Shown here piece by piece: positions 41,827-49,757 of a stretch of 50,618 nt of DNA. The notes under the pieces are model-generated. The model was not told the origin of the DNA, searched no databases, and was given only the letters and a program-made list of their open reading frames with translations. This DNA is from Candidatus Binatia bacterium (GTDB taxonomy: Bacteria; Desulfobacterota; Binatia; UBA9968): assembly GCA_041490745.1 (NCBI GenBank), contig JBGPTS010000003.1, positions 1-50,618 of the forward strand, given 5' to 3'. The stretch's first letter is position 1. The number at the start of each line of letters is the position of its first letter. Both the position numbers and the translations under genes were made by a program.

Positions 41827-42411
41827 ATGATCGGCAGGATCAGCGGCAATCTCGCGCACAAGGCCCCCGGCGAAATCACGGTCGATGTCGGCGGCGTCGG
41901 CTATCAGATTTTTATTCCGCTCAGCGTCTTTTATCGCCTGCCGGAGCCGGGAGAAAAAGTCTGCCTCTACATCCACACGCATCTGAGAGAGGACGCGCTG
42001 CAACTTTTCGGTTTTCTGGAGCCGGAGGAAAAGCAGGTTTTTCTCCTGCTGAACAGCGTCGCGGGCATCGGCCCCAAGCTCGCCGTCACGATTCTTTCCG
42101 GCATTCCGGCCGATGATCTGGCGCGCGCGCTCAAAGAAGGCGACCAGGCCCGGCTCATCTCGATCCCCGGGGTCGGCAAGAAGCTCGCCGAACGAATGGT
42201 CGTCGAGCTGCGCGACAAGGCGGTGGCGATGCCGGTGCCGACGGCTGGCGCGGCGAACGGCTCCGAGACCGCGCGCGACGCGGTCTCCGCGCTCGTCAAT
42301 CTCGGCTATCGCCGGCCCGACGCGGAGAAAATCGTGCGCGAGATCGCGCAAAAACCGGAAAGCACGCTGGCCGACGTGTTGAAGGAAGCGCTCCGCAGAT
42401 TGAGTCAATAA
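41827..42411 (+). CDS. ruvA: Holliday junction branch migration protein RuvA
   Basis: [42 protein letters not shown]. Confidence 0.95.
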
Positions 42412-42412
42412 A

Positions 42413-42472
42413 AATGTTGAATGTTTAGTTTTGAATTTCCTTCCCCAATGCAAAATTCATAATTCAACATTC
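42413..42472. repeat. Inverted AT-rich heptamer arrays between ruvA and ruvB
   Basis: aatgttgaatgtttagttttgaattt ... aaaattcataattcaacattc. Confidence 0.65.
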
Positions 42473-42481
42473 GTTTTGATT

Positions 42482-43519
<1,038 letters not shown>

Positions 43520-43559
43520 AGTAAGGTTCAAGGGGTCAAGGGTTTTGGGGAAAAACATA

Positions 43560-43657
43560 CAATGCAAAATGCAAATTTCAAAATGCAAAGTGCAAAACCA
43601 AATAAGGACGGGCTCTTAACTTTTACAATTTGCAATTTTCATTTTGCATTTTGCAAT
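43560..43657. repeat. Inverted AATGCAA / TTGCATT heptamer arrays
   Basis: aatgcaaaatgcaaatttcaaaatgcaaagtgcaaa ... tttacaatttgcaattttcattttgcattttgcaat. Confidence 0.8.
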
Positions 43658-43678
43658 GCGGCGGAGGAGAGGGGGTAG

Positions 43679-43891
43679 ATGGGACCTCTTGGCAAGACCC
43701 TGATCGTTTTCGGGCTTGTGCTCGTGGCCGTGGGTGTTGTCCTTTCCTTCGCGCCGAAGATTCCCTGGCTCGGCCGGCTTCCGGGCGACATCTATATTCA
43801 AAAAGGCAATTTTACCTTCTACTTTCCGCTCGTCACCTGCCTGCTGCTGAGCCTCATCATTACCCTTGTCCTTTACCTCTTTCGACGGTAA
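43679..43891 (+). CDS. DUF2905 small membrane protein
   Basis: WLGRLPGDI...NFTFYFPLVTCLLLS. Confidence 0.9.
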   Translation: MGPLGKTLIVFGLVLVAVGVVLSFAPKIPWLGRLPGDIYIQKGNFTFYFPLVTCLLLSLIITLVLYLFRR

Positions 43892-43898
43892 AATCCAC

Positions 43899-44095: not shown

Positions 44096-46321
44096 ATGTC
44101 GATGGACACGCGCGAAATAGAGAACGGCCTCAGGCTGGAAGAAGCCAAGCGGCGCAAGCGCGAAGGGCTGGTGATCCTCGTCACCTTCCTGATGGTGGTG
44201 CTCTTCGCCATTTTCGAGGTCCAGCTCCCCGAATTTTCTCCCGATAACGCGCTCGCCAGTAACATCGGTTTCTTTCTCCTCGTCAATATCATCATCGTTC
44301 TGCTCATCCTGCTGATCTTCCTGGTGGTCAGGAACCTGGTCAAGCTCATTTTCGAGCGGAAGAAGCGCATCCTTGGCTCGCGGCTCCGCCTCCGGCTGGT
44401 GCTGGCGTTCGTCGCGCTGTCGCTGGTGCCGACGCTCTTGCTGTTCTTCGTCGCCGGCGGTTTTGTAACGCGCTCTTTCGACCGCTGGTTCGACGTGCAG
44501 ATCGAGAACGCGCTGCAAGGCTCGCTCGAAATCGGCCAGGCGTATTATCAGAACTCCGCCAACAACGCGTTGTTTTACGCGCGGCAGTTGAGCCAGCGAG
44601 TGACGCAGGAAGCGCTGTTCGAATCCAAGCGCACGGCGGACTTAAAGGCATTCATTCAGGCCAAACAGCGCGAGTACAACCTCGGTACGGTGGAAGTCTT
44701 CGCCCCCGACCGCCGGCTCCTGGTCGTCGCGTTCAACGATCAGGTGCCGACCGGCGTGACGATCAAGCCGGAATCCGATTTTCTCAATCGCGCGCTGCGC
44801 GGAGTGGAAGTCACCCGCACGCAGGCGTTCGGCGAGGGCGACATCATCCGCGGCGGCGTGCCGGTCTATAGCGCCGACCGAAAAATTTTGGGCGCGGTCG
44901 TGGTCGATTACTACGTGCCCAAGAGCATCACCAACCGGGCGCTGCAAATCTCGCGCTCTTACGAGCAGTACAAGCATCTGACCGCGCTCAAGCGGCCGGT
45001 GAAGAACAGCTATCTTCTGACGCTGCTTCTCGTCACTCTCGTCATCATTTTCTCGGCGACGTGGTTCGGTCTTTACCTTGCCAAGGGCATCACGGTTCCG
45101 ATCCAGCGGCTGGCGGAGGGAACGCACGAGGTGGCGCACGGAAACTGGGATTATCAGATCGAGGCGGCGGGCGACGACGAGATCGGCACGCTGGTCGATT
45201 CGTTCAACCAGATGACGCGCGACTTAAAGCAGATCAACCTGGAGCTCGCCCGCCGCGGGCGCTACATGGAGACGCTCCTCGGCAACATCACCGCGGGCGT
45301 CATCTCGGTCGATCCGGCGGGCAAGATCACCACCATGAACGCCGCCGCCGAGGAGATGCTCGGTGTCAAGGCGGACCAGGCGCTCGGAAAAAGCACCGCG
45401 GCGGTTTTTCACCTGGAGCACCTCCGCGCGATGCAAGAAATCTTGGAGCAGGTGAGAGACGGCGGGACGATCGAGCGCGAAATCAAAATACCGCTTCCCG
45501 ACCAGATCCTCACGGCCGTGGCGACCGCGGCCACGTTGCGCGGCGACGACGGCAACGACCTCGGCGTCATGGTCTTTTTGGAAGACATCACGCAAATTCA
45601 GAAAGTGCAACGGATGGAGGCCTGGCGCGAGGTGGCGCGGCGGATCGCCCACGAGATCAAAAATCCCTTGACGCCGATCCAGCTCTCGGCCGAGCGGCTG
45701 AGGAAACGCTACGCCAAGCTCTTGGACGGCGACGGCGCGATTTTCGACAAGTGCACCTCGACGATCATCCAGCAGGTGGAGGATCTTAAAAATCTCGTCA
45801 ACGAGTTCTCGCAGTTCGCGCGGCTGCCGGCGGCGGAGCTGACGGCCAACGATCTCAACGAGATCGTCAAGGAGGCGCTGTTCCTGTTCAAAGAAGGCCA
45901 CAAGGGCATCAACTTTCAGTTTCATAAAGGCGAAATTCCGTCGCTCGACCTCGACCGCGACCAGATCAAGCGCGTCCTGATTAATCTTTTGGACAACGCG
46001 GTGGCGGCGGTGGAGGAAAAAGGCGAAATCCAAATCGCGACTTCCTATGCGCCCGCGTCGGGAGTCGCGTTGCTCGAAGTAGCGGACAACGGCTGCGGCC
46101 TGGCGCCGGAGATTCGCGAGCGCATCTTCGAGCCGTATTTTTCCACCAAGAAGGAGGGCACGGGGTTGGGATTGCACATCGTCAACGCCATCGTGGCGGA
46201 CCATCGGGGCAATATCCGCGTGCGCTCGAACGAGCCCAAAGGAACGCGCTTTATTATCGAGTTGCCGGCGCGCGACCCGGCGACGCCGAGGATCGCGCAG
46301 AAAAGAGCGGCGTCGTCTTGA
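44096..46321 (+). CDS. NtrY-like sensor histidine kinase (TM, periplasmic, HAMP, PAS, HisKA, HATPase)
   Basis: Three N-terminal TMs, HAMP DEIGTLVDSFNQM, PAS, H-box AWREVARRIAHEIKNPLTPIQLSAERL, N box NLLDNA, DNGCG, FEPYFSTK..GTGLGL. Confidence 0.93.
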   Translation: MSMDTREIENGLRLEEAKRRKREGLVILVTFLMVVLFAIFEVQLPEFSPDNALASNIGFFLLVNIIIVLLILLIFLVVRNLVKLIFERKKRILGSRLRLRLVLAFVALSLVPTLLLFFVAGGFVTRSFDRWFDVQIENALQGSLEIGQAYYQNSANNALFYARQLSQRVTQEALFESKRTADLKAFIQAKQREYNLGTVEVFAPDRRLLVVAFNDQVPTGVTIKPESDFLNRALRGVEVTRTQAFGEGDIIRGGVPVYSADRKILGAVVVDYYVPKSITNRALQISRSYEQYKHLTALKRPVKNSYLLTLLLVTLVIIFSATWFGLYLAKGITVPIQRLAEGTHEVAHGNWDYQIEAAGDDEIGTLVDSFNQMTRDLKQINLELARRGRYMETLLGNITAGVISVDPAGKITTMNAAAEEMLGVKADQALGKSTAAVFHLEHLRAMQEILEQVRDGGTIEREIKIPLPDQILTAVATAATLRGDDGNDLGVMVFLEDITQIQKVQRMEAWREVARRIAHEIKNPLTPIQLSAERLRKRYAKLLDGDGAIFDKCTSTIIQQVEDLKNLVNEFSQFARLPAAELTANDLNEIVKEALFLFKEGHKGINFQFHKGEIPSLDLDRDQIKRVLINLLDNAVAAVEEKGEIQIATSYAPASGVALLEVADNGCGLAPEIRERIFEPYFSTKKEGTGLGLHIVNAIVADHRGNIRVRSNEPKGTRFIIELPARDPATPRIAQKRAASS

Positions 46322-46350
46322 AGCCGGCCGCAGCAGCGTCGGGAGGATTG

Positions 46351-47646
46351 GTGAAAGGAAAGAACGCAGAGAAAAAAATCCTCGTCGTCGATGACGAGGA
46401 CCGCGTGCGGGAATCGATCCGTGAGATTTTACGTGACGAAGGCTACCGCGTGATCGAAGCGGCGGACGGAACCCAAGTGCTCGATCTCATCCGCAACGAG
46501 CGGCCCGATCTCGTGCTGCTCGACATCTGGATGCCGGAAGTGGACGGCATCGAGCTGCTCAAAGAAATCAAAAAAGCGGCGCCGCAGGTGAACGTCATCA
46601 TGATCTCCGGCCACGGCAACATTCACACGGCGGTGACGGCGACCAAGCTCGGCGCCTTCGATTTCATGGAAAAGCCGCTCTCGCTGGAAGGGCTTCTGCT
46701 TACCGTGCGTCGCGCGCTCGACGAATCGGGCGGCGTCGAAGACAAGGTGAAAACGCCGGCTGAAACGAAATTGAAACGCAGCGCGCGCCAGGCGGCGACC
46801 GGAGCGCGCCATGCTCGCGGCCTCAAGCAACGGACGCTCAAAAAAAGCGTCGTCTTCTCGGGCCACGGGCTCCATTCGGGCATCAAGACCGGCGTCGTGC
46901 TCCATCCGCTGCCGCCCAACAGCGGCGTGCGCTTCAGCGGCATCTCCGCCGACGCCACGGTGCCGGCTCATCTCGACTATGTCGGCTCGACCGGTTACGC
47001 GACTTCGCTCCGCGGCAAGGGAATCGTGGTCGGCACGGTCGAGCACTTTCTCGCCGTCCTGCATAGCTACGGCATCGGCAACCTGCTGGTCAAAATTCAG
47101 GGCGAGATCCCGATCATGGACGGCTCGGCGCTCGAATTCTGCCGGCTGATCGAAGAGGCGGGGATCGAGGAGCAGAACGCAGCGTGGTCGGAAATCAAAA
47201 TCGACCGGACCTACCGCGTGGGAGAGAAAAACGGCGAGGCGATCAGCGTCGAGCCGGCCGACGCCTTCAGCGTCAAATACGTCCTCAATTATCCCGAGCC
47301 GGTGGGCGTTCAGGAGCATACCTTCGTGTCGTCGGGTCCGGAATCGTTCAAAGCAGAGATCGCGCCGGCGCGGACGTTCGGCTTTATCAAAGACTACGAG
47401 CAGCTCGAAAAGGCCGGGCTAGTGAACGGCGGGCGGCTCAGCAACTGCATCTTGATCGACAACGAAAAGGTCATCAACACGGAGCTGCGCTTCCCCGACG
47501 AATTTGCGCGCCACAAAATTCTCGACATCATCGGCGATTTTTATCTGCTCGGCCGTCCGATCCGCGGCAAAGTGACGGCGCGCATGACCGGGCACGCGGA
47601 CAACATCGCGCTGTTGCGGGAAGTCCGCAAAGGCATGGCGCTGTAA
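46351..47646 (+). CDS. lpxC: Fusion: NtrX-type receiver domain + UDP-3-O-acyl-N-acetylglucosamine deacetylase (LpxC)
   Basis: REC: ILVVDDE, LLDIWMP, ISGHGNI, EKP. LpxC: KQRTL..GHGLHSG, TVEHFLA, EIPIMDGSA, APARTFGF, HKILDIIGD, GHADN. Single open frame; GTG after GGAGG. Confidence 0.93.
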   Translation: MKGKNAEKKILVVDDEDRVRESIREILRDEGYRVIEAADGTQVLDLIRNERPDLVLLDIWMPEVDGIELLKEIKKAAPQVNVIMISGHGNIHTAVTATKLGAFDFMEKPLSLEGLLLTVRRALDESGGVEDKVKTPAETKLKRSARQAATGARHARGLKQRTLKKSVVFSGHGLHSGIKTGVVLHPLPPNSGVRFSGISADATVPAHLDYVGSTGYATSLRGKGIVVGTVEHFLAVLHSYGIGNLLVKIQGEIPIMDGSALEFCRLIEEAGIEEQNAAWSEIKIDRTYRVGEKNGEAISVEPADAFSVKYVLNYPEPVGVQEHTFVSSGPESFKAEIAPARTFGFIKDYEQLEKAGLVNGGRLSNCILIDNEKVINTELRFPDEFARHKILDIIGDFYLLGRPIRGKVTARMTGHADNIALLREVRKGMAL

Positions 47647-47648
47647 AC

Positions 47649-48098
47649 ATGGCTACGTCGCAGCCGGTCCCGCGGCTATTTACCGTCGATGAGGCCAACG
47701 CCCTGCTGCCGGAGCTGCGGCCGCTGGTCGAGCGCATCCTGAATCATCTCGAAACTTTGAGGGAGAAAAGCGAGACGGTGATCCGCGACGAGCGGCTGTC
47801 GCCCTCCAGCCCGGAGCTGATGAAATCCTTGCAGCAGAACGTGGCGATTGCGAGCTTGATCCAGGAGGTGAAATGCCTGGTCGATGAGATCAACGGCTAC
47901 GGCTGCATCTGCAAGGGCATCGAGGAGGGGTTGGTGGACTTCCCCTGCCTGCTCGGCGGCGAGATCGTTCTTCTCTGCTGGCGCTTCGGCGAAGTGAGCG
48001 TCGGCCATTGGCATCGCGTCGAAGACGGCTTCGCCGGCCGCAAGGCGCTGCTGGATAGCGAAGAAGAGGGGGGAGACGGAAACATTTCCTATCACTGA
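47649..48098 (+). CDS. DUF2203 family protein
   Basis: FTVDEANALLP...KGIEEGLVDFP...LLCWRFGE...WHRVEDGFAGRK. Confidence 0.88.
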   Translation: MATSQPVPRLFTVDEANALLPELRPLVERILNHLETLREKSETVIRDERLSPSSPELMKSLQQNVAIASLIQEVKCLVDEINGYGCICKGIEEGLVDFPCLLGGEIVLLCWRFGEVSVGHWHRVEDGFAGRKALLDSEEEGGDGNISYH

Positions 48099-48163: not shown

Positions 48164-49330
48164 ATGAAAGCTGCTCGGGTCAAAGAATCAGCCGCCTTCT
48201 CCCAGAAGATCAAGGAAGAAGCGCAGCGGCTGGGCTTTGCGCTGGTAGGCATCTCTCCCGTCGCCGCTCCTCCGCGCGAAAAATCGTTTGCCGAGTGGCT
48301 GAGGAAGGGGCTCGGCGGCGAAATGGGCTACCTCAAGCGCACCGAGGAGCTGCGTCGCGATCCGAAAAAGCTCGTTCCCTGGGCGGTTTCGGTCATTTCC
48401 GTCGGCATGAATTACTTTACGCCGCCGCCACGGCCCGAGGTGTCGGAAGACTCTCGTGGTTGGATCTCGCGCTATGCGTGGGGCGACGATTATCACGATC
48501 TCGTCAAACGGCGGCTGGACTTGCTGCTGGGAAAAATTAAAACGATGCATCCCGATCCGATCGAGGGCCGGGCGTTCGTCGATTCCGGCCCGGTGCTGGA
48601 GAGGGGAATCTCCGCCTTAGGCGGAATCGGCTGGATCGGGAAAAACACGCATCTCATCTCGCCCAAAAAAGGCTCGTGGTTTTTTTTGGGCGAACTGTTT
48701 GTCAGCATCGAGATGGCTTACGACCGCGCGATCAAAGACCGCTGCGGCAAATGCGATCTCTGCCTCAAGGCGTGCCCGACCGGCGCTTTCGCCGGCCCAT
48801 ACGTTCTCGACGCCCGGCGCTGCATCTCTTATCTCACGATCGAGCTTAAAGGCGCGATGCCCCGCCATTTGCGCCCGCTCGTCGGCAATCACGTCTTCGG
48901 CTGCGATATTTGCCAGGAGGTTTGTCCGTACAACGTCAAAGCGGCGCCGACAGGCGAGGAGGCGTTTCAACCCAGAGACGGCCTGCACGCGCCGGATTTG
49001 ATTCCGCTTCTTTCTCTCAGCGAAGAAGAATTTCGCCGCCGCTTCAAAGGCAGCCCGCTGCTGCGGGCGAAGCGTCGGGGATTTTTGCGCAACGTCGCCG
49101 TCGCCTTGGGAAATCTCAAAAGCCGCGAAGCCGTTCCGGCGTTGATCCGGGCGCTGCAAGATACAGAGCCGCTCGTGCGCGGCCACGCCGCGTGGGCGTT
49201 GGGAGAGATCGGCACGCCGGAGACGTTCCGCGCGCTGGCAAAGCGCTTGACCGTTGAAACAGACGCCGAGGTGAAAAAAGAGATCGAAGCCGCGAGCGGG
49301 GAAAGCGGCAATCGCCGGGCAATCGCCTAA
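48164..49330 (+). CDS. queG: Epoxyqueuosine reductase
   Basis: ISRYAWGDDYH, VDSGPVLER, CGKCDLCLKACP, RRCISYLTIE, GCDICQEVCP, HEAT tail. Confidence 0.95.
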   Translation: MKAARVKESAAFSQKIKEEAQRLGFALVGISPVAAPPREKSFAEWLRKGLGGEMGYLKRTEELRRDPKKLVPWAVSVISVGMNYFTPPPRPEVSEDSRGWISRYAWGDDYHDLVKRRLDLLLGKIKTMHPDPIEGRAFVDSGPVLERGISALGGIGWIGKNTHLISPKKGSWFFLGELFVSIEMAYDRAIKDRCGKCDLCLKACPTGAFAGPYVLDARRCISYLTIELKGAMPRHLRPLVGNHVFGCDICQEVCPYNVKAAPTGEEAFQPRDGLHAPDLIPLLSLSEEEFRRRFKGSPLLRAKRRGFLRNVAVALGNLKSREAVPALIRALQDTEPLVRGHAAWALGEIGTPETFRALAKRLTVETDAEVKKEIEAASGESGNRRAIA

Positions 49331-49337
49331 CAGCGCG

Positions 49338-49757
49338 TCAATCTTTTTTCTTCGCGCACGCCTGTTTCAAGACAGTTTCCAATTCCGCGGTCATCTTGGC
49401 GACTTTCCCGCTCCGATCGACGCAGGCGTGCCGTGTCGCGCCCTCGGCCAGAAGCCGGGCGTCGTTTTTTCGCGTGATTCGGTAGCTGAATTCCAGCGTG
49501 GCGCGGCCCAGCGCCGCGAGCGTCGTCTCCACGACGATTTCGTCGTCGAAGCGCGCCGGCTTGTGATAGCGGCACGAAACCTCGGTCACCGGGAAAAAAA
49601 CCCCGCTCGCTTCGACGGCGGAATAGGGCAGACCGATGTGGCGCAGCAGCTCGGTCCGTCCCATTTCGAACCACCGGAGATAGTTGGCGTAGTAAACGAC
49701 GCCCATCTGGTCGGTGTCGCCGTAGATCACGCGGTAGGATGTCGAGTGGATCGCCAT
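49338..49757 (-). CDS. YbgC/FadM-family acyl-CoA thioesterase
   Basis: RVIYGDTDQMGVVYYANYLRWFEMGRTE. Confidence 0.92.
   Translation of the reverse strand: MAIHSTSYRVIYGDTDQMGVVYYANYLRWFEMGRTELLRHIGLPYSAVEASGVFFPVTEVSCRYHKPARFDDEIVVETTLAALGRATLEFSYRITRKNDARLLAEGATRHACVDRSGKVAKMTAELETVLKQACAKKKD

Follow-up and report, generated by a model that had tools for sequence, protein, structure and literature searches.

A receiver domain fused to LpxC beside an NtrY-like kinase in Candidatus Binatia: a candidate for phosphorylation control of lipid A synthesis

Features of the locus

The stretch of DNA analyzed here (hereafter the window; 50,618 nucleotides, nt) comprises positions 1-50,618 of the forward strand of contig JBGPTS010000003.1 in assembly GCA_041490745.1, which represents a Candidatus Binatia bacterium (Desulfobacterota; Binatia; UBA9968). 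Its forward strand carries the gene of an NtrY-like sensor histidine kinase (44096-46321; 741 amino acids) and, starting 29 nt after the kinase stop codon (46319-46321), a gene of 431 codons plus stop (46351-47646), in which a response-regulator receiver domain and LpxC (Pfam families Response_reg and LpxC) are joined in one open frame. LpxC catalyzes the committing step of lipid A synthesis, at which the making of lipopolysaccharide is controlled, and has long been pursued as a target for antibiotics. An earlier note, made from the sequence alone, had proposed that the transcriptional output of a two-component system is here replaced by the enzyme, which an envelope-sensing kinase could then switch by phosphorylation.

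The fusion frame is uninterrupted, as the note had read it. Its GTG start codon (46351-46353) is preceded by the sequence GGGAGGA (46341-46347), which is likely to be the ribosome-binding site, and homologues of 426-431 amino acids start at the equivalent of this GTG. An alternative in-frame TTG at 46318, which would extend the protein to 442 amino acids, is used by some database entries.

The receiver domain occupies residues 9-126 (46375-46728; PF00072, E 1.1e-33, 116 bits against a cut-off of 30.2) and has the phospho-site residues D14, D15, D58 (codon 46522-46524), S86, F105 and K108. Among the response-regulator families of NCBIfam, NtrX matches it best, and among solved structures those of Brucella NtrX (4d6x and 5m7n) do so, which bears out the note's description of a complete receiver of NtrX type. 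The NtrX equivalog model NF051870 matched the fusion protein with 142 bits, below its cut-off of 600, and only over positions 3-125 of 452; no Pfam match to Sigma54_activat, AAA_lid or HTH_8 was found in this protein. The receiver is followed by a charged, variable linker of 30 residues (127-156; 46729-46818), for which the alignments gave no consensus and AlphaFold2 a predicted local distance difference test score (pLDDT) below 50.

The LpxC domain comprises residues 159-431 (46825-47643), with its start near 46825-46828, and is full-length, as had been claimed: the match to PF03331 covers positions 1-266 of the 268 in the profile (281 bits, cut-off 27; E 1.3e-83), that to TIGR00325 reaches 250.9 bits (cut-off 187.25), and comparisons with the solved enzymes of P. 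aeruginosa, E. coli and A. aeolicus gave E values of 1e-54 to 1e-46. The TVEH, ARTFGF, HKILDxIGD and GH motifs of the solved LpxC chains have their aligned counterparts in residues E231, H232, T342, H388, K389, D392, D396 and H415, which we take to provide the zinc ligands (two His and one Asp) and the catalytic Glu, His, Thr, Lys and Asp. All motifs looked for in the fusion (DDE, LLDIW, SGHG and EKP in its receiver; TVEH, HKILDIIGD and GH in its LpxC part) were found. The LpxC part stops shortly after the catalytic fold, without a long C-terminal tail.

The kinase exceeds the cut-offs of all five Pfam families of an NtrY-type protein (NtrY_N, HAMP, PAS, HisKA and HATPase_c), and the histidine of its HEIKNP motif is His519, encoded at nt 45650, where the earlier note had placed it. 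Its hydropathy profile shows four hydrophobic segments (residues 21-47, 50-88, 97-128 and 301-330), the third and fourth being separated by a loop of about 170 residues. The kinase is the sole NtrY_N match in the window's genome; among 14 control genomes only Caulobacter matched.

Support for the fused reading frame

Contigs assembled independently from four public sequencing runs span the junction between receiver and LpxC with no insertion or deletion (X1, 46118-47126; X2, 46100-46944; X4, 46659-46851; X14, from a diverged strain, 46506-47218), in the region (46700-46850) that the note had wanted checked; one of the four is possibly the sample behind the window's own assembly. The full-length fusion was present in 37 of the 41 genomes of the window's order (35 of 39 without the unpublished G016 and G022), was cut by a contig end in three and was not found in one, which is 86% complete. 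The same fused frame occurs in closed chromosomes, several of them labelled Candidatus Binatia, and all of the 120 best clusters listed from a collection of 5.8 billion proteins contain both Pfam domains. An artefact of assembly or annotation that joins two separate genes is refuted by the junction contigs, the closed chromosomes and these two-domain clusters, and its probability is negligible.

A second LpxC fragment was seen in one genome of the order (G036:C28:9-617; 44% identical), at a contig end and with the full fusion also present; it may be contamination or a paralogue.

Distribution and domain architectures

A sample of 401 genomes drawn evenly from the phylum was searched with the LpxC part alone. 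LpxC was found in 374 of them with bimodal scores: 101 genomes hold a member of the fused clade (E <= 2.9e-84; 47-100% identity), and the next score was 1.8e-62. Nearly all sampled genomes gave one LpxC match, and G074, G239 and G351 gave two. The architecture was read in 100 loci, namely 99 of the 101 plus that of G074. The short form, REC-LpxC, accounts for 69 and the long form, REC-AAA+-LpxC, for 28; two are AAA+-LpxC with the receiver out of frame and one is cut by a contig end, which leaves the fusion intact in 97 of the 100. Counted by genome (G000 and G019 added, G074 removed), 70 of the 101 have the short form and 28 have long forms.

The two loci with an out-of-frame receiver (L108 and L121) may reflect a frameshift or a sequencing error; in L121, 450 nt separate the end of the kinase from the AAA+ domain. 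A triple fusion of kinase, receiver and LpxC was considered for L131, L133 and L164 and rejected: the kinase lies in another frame and ends 30-54 nt before the receiver, and the stop-free frames of 1007-1423 codons in these loci are explained by high G+C content.

A search of 1.84 billion representative proteins returned many of 650-736 amino acids that end in LpxC. P0122 and P0123 have the complete long architecture of REC, Sigma54_activat, AAA_lid and LpxC according to Pfam, and a long-form example has a Fis-type helix-turn-helix directly 5' of the LpxC part. Walker A is present in 29 of 30 long-form rows and GAFTGA in none of the 30, the absence of GAFTGA being expected in AAA+ domains of NtrX type, as these motifs are defined. 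All 120 listed relatives of P0122 contain LpxC, Sigma54_activat and AAA_lid, and most also the receiver, several being shorter and without it; they are named NtrX or LpxC and come exclusively from uncultured Deltaproteobacteria, Desulfobacterota or Thermodesulfobacteriota. Intermediate architectures were also found: a decayed AAA+ domain in P0126 and P0135, REC-HTH_8-LpxC in P0137, and a receiver separated from LpxC by about 120 residues in P0127. The note's statement that the enzyme replaces the transcriptional output accordingly holds only for the short form and fails for the 28 of 100 loci in which a whole NtrX precedes LpxC.

The short form is not confined to the phylum. P0153 is 43% identical to the window's protein, and each of its 120 listed relatives has the two domains; among them are proteins of 427-435 amino acids with the names of Brachyspira pulli, B. 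intermedia, B. aalborgi, B. hampsonii and Brachyspira sp. CAG:700, and others from metagenome-assembled genomes of Spirochaetota. The fusion is not rare, being present in about a quarter of the 401-genome sample and in cultured Brachyspira, and is less singular than it had been taken to be. The databases hold thousands of copies, labelled plain LpxC or NtrX.

Fusions of Binatia type (50-83% identity) were also encountered on contigs of seven loci (L018, L054, L058, L059, L061, L074 and L081) with the labels Verrucomicrobiia, Acidiferrales, Mycobacterium sp., Limnocylindrales, Thermodesulfovibrionia, Gemmatimonadota and Limnocylindria. These labels are probably binning or labelling errors and not the true hosts.

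Conservation and phylogeny

The 100 phylum loci and the window's protein were aligned (101 rows). The receiver has D14, D15, D58, K108 and P109 without exception, Ser or Thr at position 86 and Phe or Tyr at position 105 (97-98 aligned rows, the rest being gaps). In LpxC, all 101 rows have E231, H232, H388 and K389, and 99-100 of them have D392, D396, H415 and T342, the exceptions being truncated rows and one Ser. The same conservation was observed in two further alignments (A1, 106 rows; A3, 64 rows), and the Brachyspira proteins keep all functional residues, with Ser in place of T342. Degenerate sites in the homologues, which the note had named as grounds for abandoning its proposal, were thus not what the alignments revealed; both the receiver half and the LpxC half are, on this pattern of residues, under purifying selection.

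Two trees of LpxC were computed. From the first, two of the 100 loci were dropped (LpxC match of less than 250 residues) and G019 was not included; the second comprised 44 fused rows chosen to cover each family code, 22 free LpxCs picked from the search of representative proteins, six spirochaete proteins and five Desulfobulbia loci. All fused forms, i.e., those of Binatia, the other short forms, the long forms and those of Desulfobulbaceae/Desulfocapsaceae and spirochaetes, fell into one clade relative to the free LpxCs chosen as outgroup (SH-like approximate likelihood ratio test support 98 and 99). The spirochaete fused proteins adjoin those of Desulfobulbia with a support of 99. The short forms are mixed with the long ones on the trees (two to four changes of label), and the deep forks have low support. 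Because of the three intermediate architectures, a stepwise reduction from a whole NtrX-LpxC fusion to the short form is the more likely course. A free-standing LpxC of 283 amino acids (P0210) is nested in the spirochaete fused group; either its receiver was lost secondarily or the gene call is cut short at the N-terminus.

Pairing of the fusion with the kinase

Of 69 related loci, 59 have the NtrY-like kinase directly 5' of the fusion; of the other ten, four are without upstream DNA and six without a kinase within reach. All 12 genomes sampled from the same class have the fusion with the kinase adjacent. Across the 100 phylum loci, the kinase is adjacent in 26 (14 short and 12 long forms), farther away in two and not within about 4.5 kb in 57, and 15 have too little upstream DNA. 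The note had asked for a test of co-occurrence with the NtrY-like kinase; as adjacency, it holds in most of the related loci and throughout the class sample, but not in those 57 loci of the phylum.

The partners of the kinase were compared in ten genomes with an unlinked fusion and ten closed genomes with a free LpxC, all picked by hand. Each of the ten unlinked-fusion genomes has a single full-length NtrY orthologue (34-52% identity), and in none of them was a REC or AAA+ gene found beside NtrY within the 0.9-1.5 kb available. The neighbors of the unlinked fusions vary and include genes for radical SAM, Hsp20, PhoH and acyl-CoA dehydrogenase proteins. Nine of the ten free-LpxC genomes have an NtrY orthologue, which in seven of the nine is followed by a canonical REC-AAA+ gene. 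In two loci (L200, 4813-5106; L210, 4519-5205) a free lpxC is located just 5' of ntrY-ntrX. G074 has a free lpxC just 5' of an NtrY that lacks NtrX (L204, 4013-4822), and its REC-LpxC fusion is on another contig. No protein of the window's genome reached the 600-bit cut-off of the NtrX equivalog, the best scoring 417. Because no NtrX was found beside NtrY wherever the fusion was examined, the fusion seems to have taken the place of NtrX as partner of the kinase.

Predicted structure and the role of the receiver

AlphaFold2, run with alignment A1, gave the window's protein a mean pLDDT of 87.8 and a predicted template modelling score (pTM) of 0.85; values below 50 were restricted to residues 1-5 and 127-156, the latter being the charged linker that the note had described. 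A Brachyspira-type homologue (39% identical) gave 85.8 and 0.75. By our own estimate, leaving the receiver of 125 residues unplaced relative to the 275-residue LpxC would give a pTM of about 0.6; because the scores exceed this value despite the disordered linker, the models give a weak hint that the receiver may be docked against LpxC. A complex prediction with separate chains (LpxC 156-431 and receiver 1-128) scored 0.01 against a mark of 0.32 and was used neither way.

The receiver might instead be a passenger with its signalling role elsewhere, for example that of a phosphate sink or one exerted on a partner protein, while LpxC is constitutive and the fusion serves co-expression or stoichiometry only. 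The long forms lend themselves to such an explanation: with Walker A nearly always kept and a helix-turn-helix in the example, their NtrX part possibly still binds DNA. The disordered and variable linker suits it as well, and the bifunctional LpxC/FabZ protein (NCBIfam PRK13188) illustrates that LpxC tolerates fusion without known regulatory meaning, as far as the accessible text of PMC3087551 goes. The short forms, however, have no other output, yet their phospho-site is kept across Binatia, other Desulfobacterota and spirochaetes; the fusion is intact in 97 of 100 loci and in every lineage of the clade that was sampled; and NtrY is without another adjacent partner in all ten genomes compared. 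We consider a passenger receiver unlikely.

Lipid A pathway

The fusion is the sole LpxC match in the window's genome, which consists of 254 contigs and is 85% complete, so the note's question about a second stand-alone lpxC was answered in the negative for this assembly. LpxA and LpxB were also found, and no LpxK above the cut-off was found in this 85%-complete genome. The gene content thus shows the fusion to be the presumptive housekeeping LpxC of the bacterium. The companion question about lapB and yejM received a partial answer: Zn_ribbon_LapB has one match, from a model that also matches 10 of 14 control genomes including Gram-positives, and YejM (DUF3413) was not found in what is an 85%-complete genome.

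These results bear on a second explanation, in which phosphorylation sets the amount or location of LpxC and not its catalysis, the receiver being a degron, an adaptor-binding module or a tether in the manner of RssB or CtrA; FtsH/LapB control would then have a counterpart that works through phosphorylation. It accounts for the conserved receiver and catalytic residues equally well, and it could draw on the LapB-type zinc-ribbon match, on the missing YejM and on the short C-terminus, given that E. coli LpxC is, in the text available of a 2025 review, controlled mainly via its protein level (PMC12444477). Set against this are the poor specificity of the zinc-ribbon model and the incompleteness of the genome, the lack of a conserved protease or adaptor gene beside the fusion, and the high pTM, which would hint at a contact within the molecule. 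We rate control of amount or location as rather unlikely, if slightly less so than a passenger receiver.

The flow of information might also be reversed, with the LpxC domain sensing the state of the pathway through substrate or product occupancy, altering the phosphorylation of the receiver and so reporting lipid A flux. This is conceivable for the long forms, in which a DNA-binding output remains. The window's protein has LpxC as its only output, the invariant residues are catalytic and not just binding residues, and a sole LpxC must be catalytic. Such a reversal is highly improbable.

Flanking genes

The kinase and the fusion, which are linked in an operon, belong to a run of genes that all point in the same direction: ruvA, ruvB, a DUF2905 gene, the kinase, the fusion, a DUF2203 gene and queG. 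The first three (41827-43891, +) are located 5' of the kinase, and the order ruvA-ruvB-(DUF2905)-kinase-fusion is kept in most Binatia loci. A scan for promoters and terminators indicated a -35/-10-like site with a weak consensus match at 43866-43894, 5' of the kinase, and a hairpin of 16 pairs with a T-rich tail at 48659-48693 (+), within the coding region of queG.

The DUF2203 gene (47664-48098, +; Pfam DUF2203, E 9.9e-33) begins 17 nt 3' of the fusion and probably shares a transcript with it. DUF2203 follows the fusion in many, though not all, related loci: it is kept in the closer relatives (e.g., L014-L037) and missing in L038-L053, which represent a different family within the order. An open reading frame of 139 codons on the reverse strand (49338-49757) looks by eye, from its N-terminal sequence, like an acyl-CoA thioesterase of 4HBT/YbgC type.

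Relation to known systems

Among the closest known systems is NtrY/NtrX of the alphaproteobacteria. The kinase has the same NtrY_N-HAMP-PAS-HisKA-HATPase_c layout, the receiver is closest to that of NtrX, and the long fused relatives share the GAFTGA-less AAA+ domain of NtrX; NtrX, however, acts on DNA, whereas the window's protein has LpxC in place of the AAA+ and helix-turn-helix domains. NtrYX has already been tied to the levels of lpxC and lipopolysaccharide: in the accessible part of a study of R. sphaeroides, deletion of ntrYX raised lpxC mRNA 8.8-fold and increased lipopolysaccharide, although lpxC showed no NtrX site (PMC7240162). The 2025 lipid A review, in its accessible text, names NtrYX and ChvGI as controlling lpxC transcription, and describes the control of LpxC in proteobacteria as proteolytic, through partner proteins and transcriptional (PMC12444477).

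A two-component system dedicated to lpxC is also known from the same broad lineage. In D. vulgaris, lpxC is the single target of the regulator DVU2934, whose gene shares an operon with that of the kinase DVU2931, and in S. fumaroxidans lpxC lies directly 5' of the orthologous operon (PMC3333781, in the sections available); a related passage occurs in the part seen of 10.1101/2021.11.05.467447. The arrangement in S. fumaroxidans matches that of L200 and L210 described above. Unlike the fusion, DVU2931/DVU2934 exerts transcriptional control through separate proteins. FtsH/LapB/YejM of E. coli controls the same step, the flux into lipid A at LpxC (PMC12444477, text as available), but does so by regulated proteolysis through a C-terminal degron.

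In layout, with a receiver, a linker and an enzyme, the fusion resembles CheB (REC-methylesterase), PleD and WspR (REC-GGDEF) and RpfG (REC-HD-GYP). In the CheB model the receiver covers the active site until it is phosphorylated, and in the PleD model phosphorylation drives dimerization. The outputs are unrelated in sequence, and that of the fusion is a biosynthetic zinc amidase and not a signalling enzyme. The bifunctional LpxC/FabZ of Bacteroidota, Chlorobi and Verrucomicrobia is likewise a fusion of the LpxC gene, but there a pathway enzyme is attached at the C-terminus, whereas here a signalling domain is attached at the N-terminus.

No paper describing the REC-LpxC fusion was found in searches whose coverage excludes about 1.7 million PubMed Central articles and most subscription journals; the note's remark that no characterized example is known stands to that extent. 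The words 'fused', 'fusion' and 'response regulator' are absent from the text of PMC12444477. The Brachyspira hyodysenteriae genome paper and a paper on the evolution of Kdo2-lipid A list lpxC without mentioning a receiver in their accessible text (PMC2650404, PMC3087551), and lpxC/fabZ is the only LpxC gene fusion mentioned in that of the latter (PMC3087551). The protein is an enzymatic response regulator with a new type of output, at a much-studied control point.

Proposed mechanism

Sensing of the envelope by the kinase and an effect of phosphorylation on LpxC, as the note proposed them, are both inferences. The reading to which we incline on the sequence evidence, and which we hold to be slightly more probable than not, is that a two-component regulator of lpxC was captured by its target, so that phosphorylation would now act directly on LpxC. 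A two-component system that controlled lpxC transcription would have become fused to its target gene, and several lineages, including Binatia, would then have lost the AAA+ and DNA-binding parts. The NtrY-like kinase would phosphorylate D58, and the receiver would respond either by docking on or undocking from LpxC, as in CheB, or by dimerizing via its alpha4-beta5-alpha5 face, as in the NtrC family. The output of LpxC would thereby be raised or lowered, and lipid A flux would follow the kinase signal without transcription or proteolysis of FtsH type.

The wide conservation of the fusion strengthens this functional interpretation. Several observations weigh against capture of the regulator by its target. 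The kinase is non-adjacent in 57 of the 100 phylum loci, and the two LpxCs of G074 mean that the fusion is not always the sole LpxC. The long form keeps a whole NtrX, so fusion alone need not mean that the receiver acts on LpxC. The disordered linker, which varies in length and sequence, fits independently tumbling domains equally well; the pTM values bear on a contact only indirectly, that of the second model being the lower; and the deep forks of the trees are too weakly supported to order the short and long forms. For the claim in full, namely that the kinase phosphorylates LpxC itself, that the regulator was fused to its target with loss of the DNA-binding parts, and that a direct phospho-switch operates in Binatia, many Desulfobacterota and Brachyspira, we would put the chances slightly below even.

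Significance

That LpxC carries a receiver with a complete phospho-site in three distant lineages suggests that phosphorylation controls it directly. If true, a direct phospho-switch would be a new mode of LpxC regulation, in which a regulator has been captured by its target. The fusion also provides independent support, of the Rosetta-stone type, for the link between NtrYX and lpxC drawn from the genetics of alphaproteobacteria and Desulfovibrio. The proposal is testable, the protein being small and soluble-looking, its partner kinase identified and some of its holders (Brachyspira) cultured. Together, the long, intermediate and short forms show how a transcription factor may become an allosteric domain of its own target.

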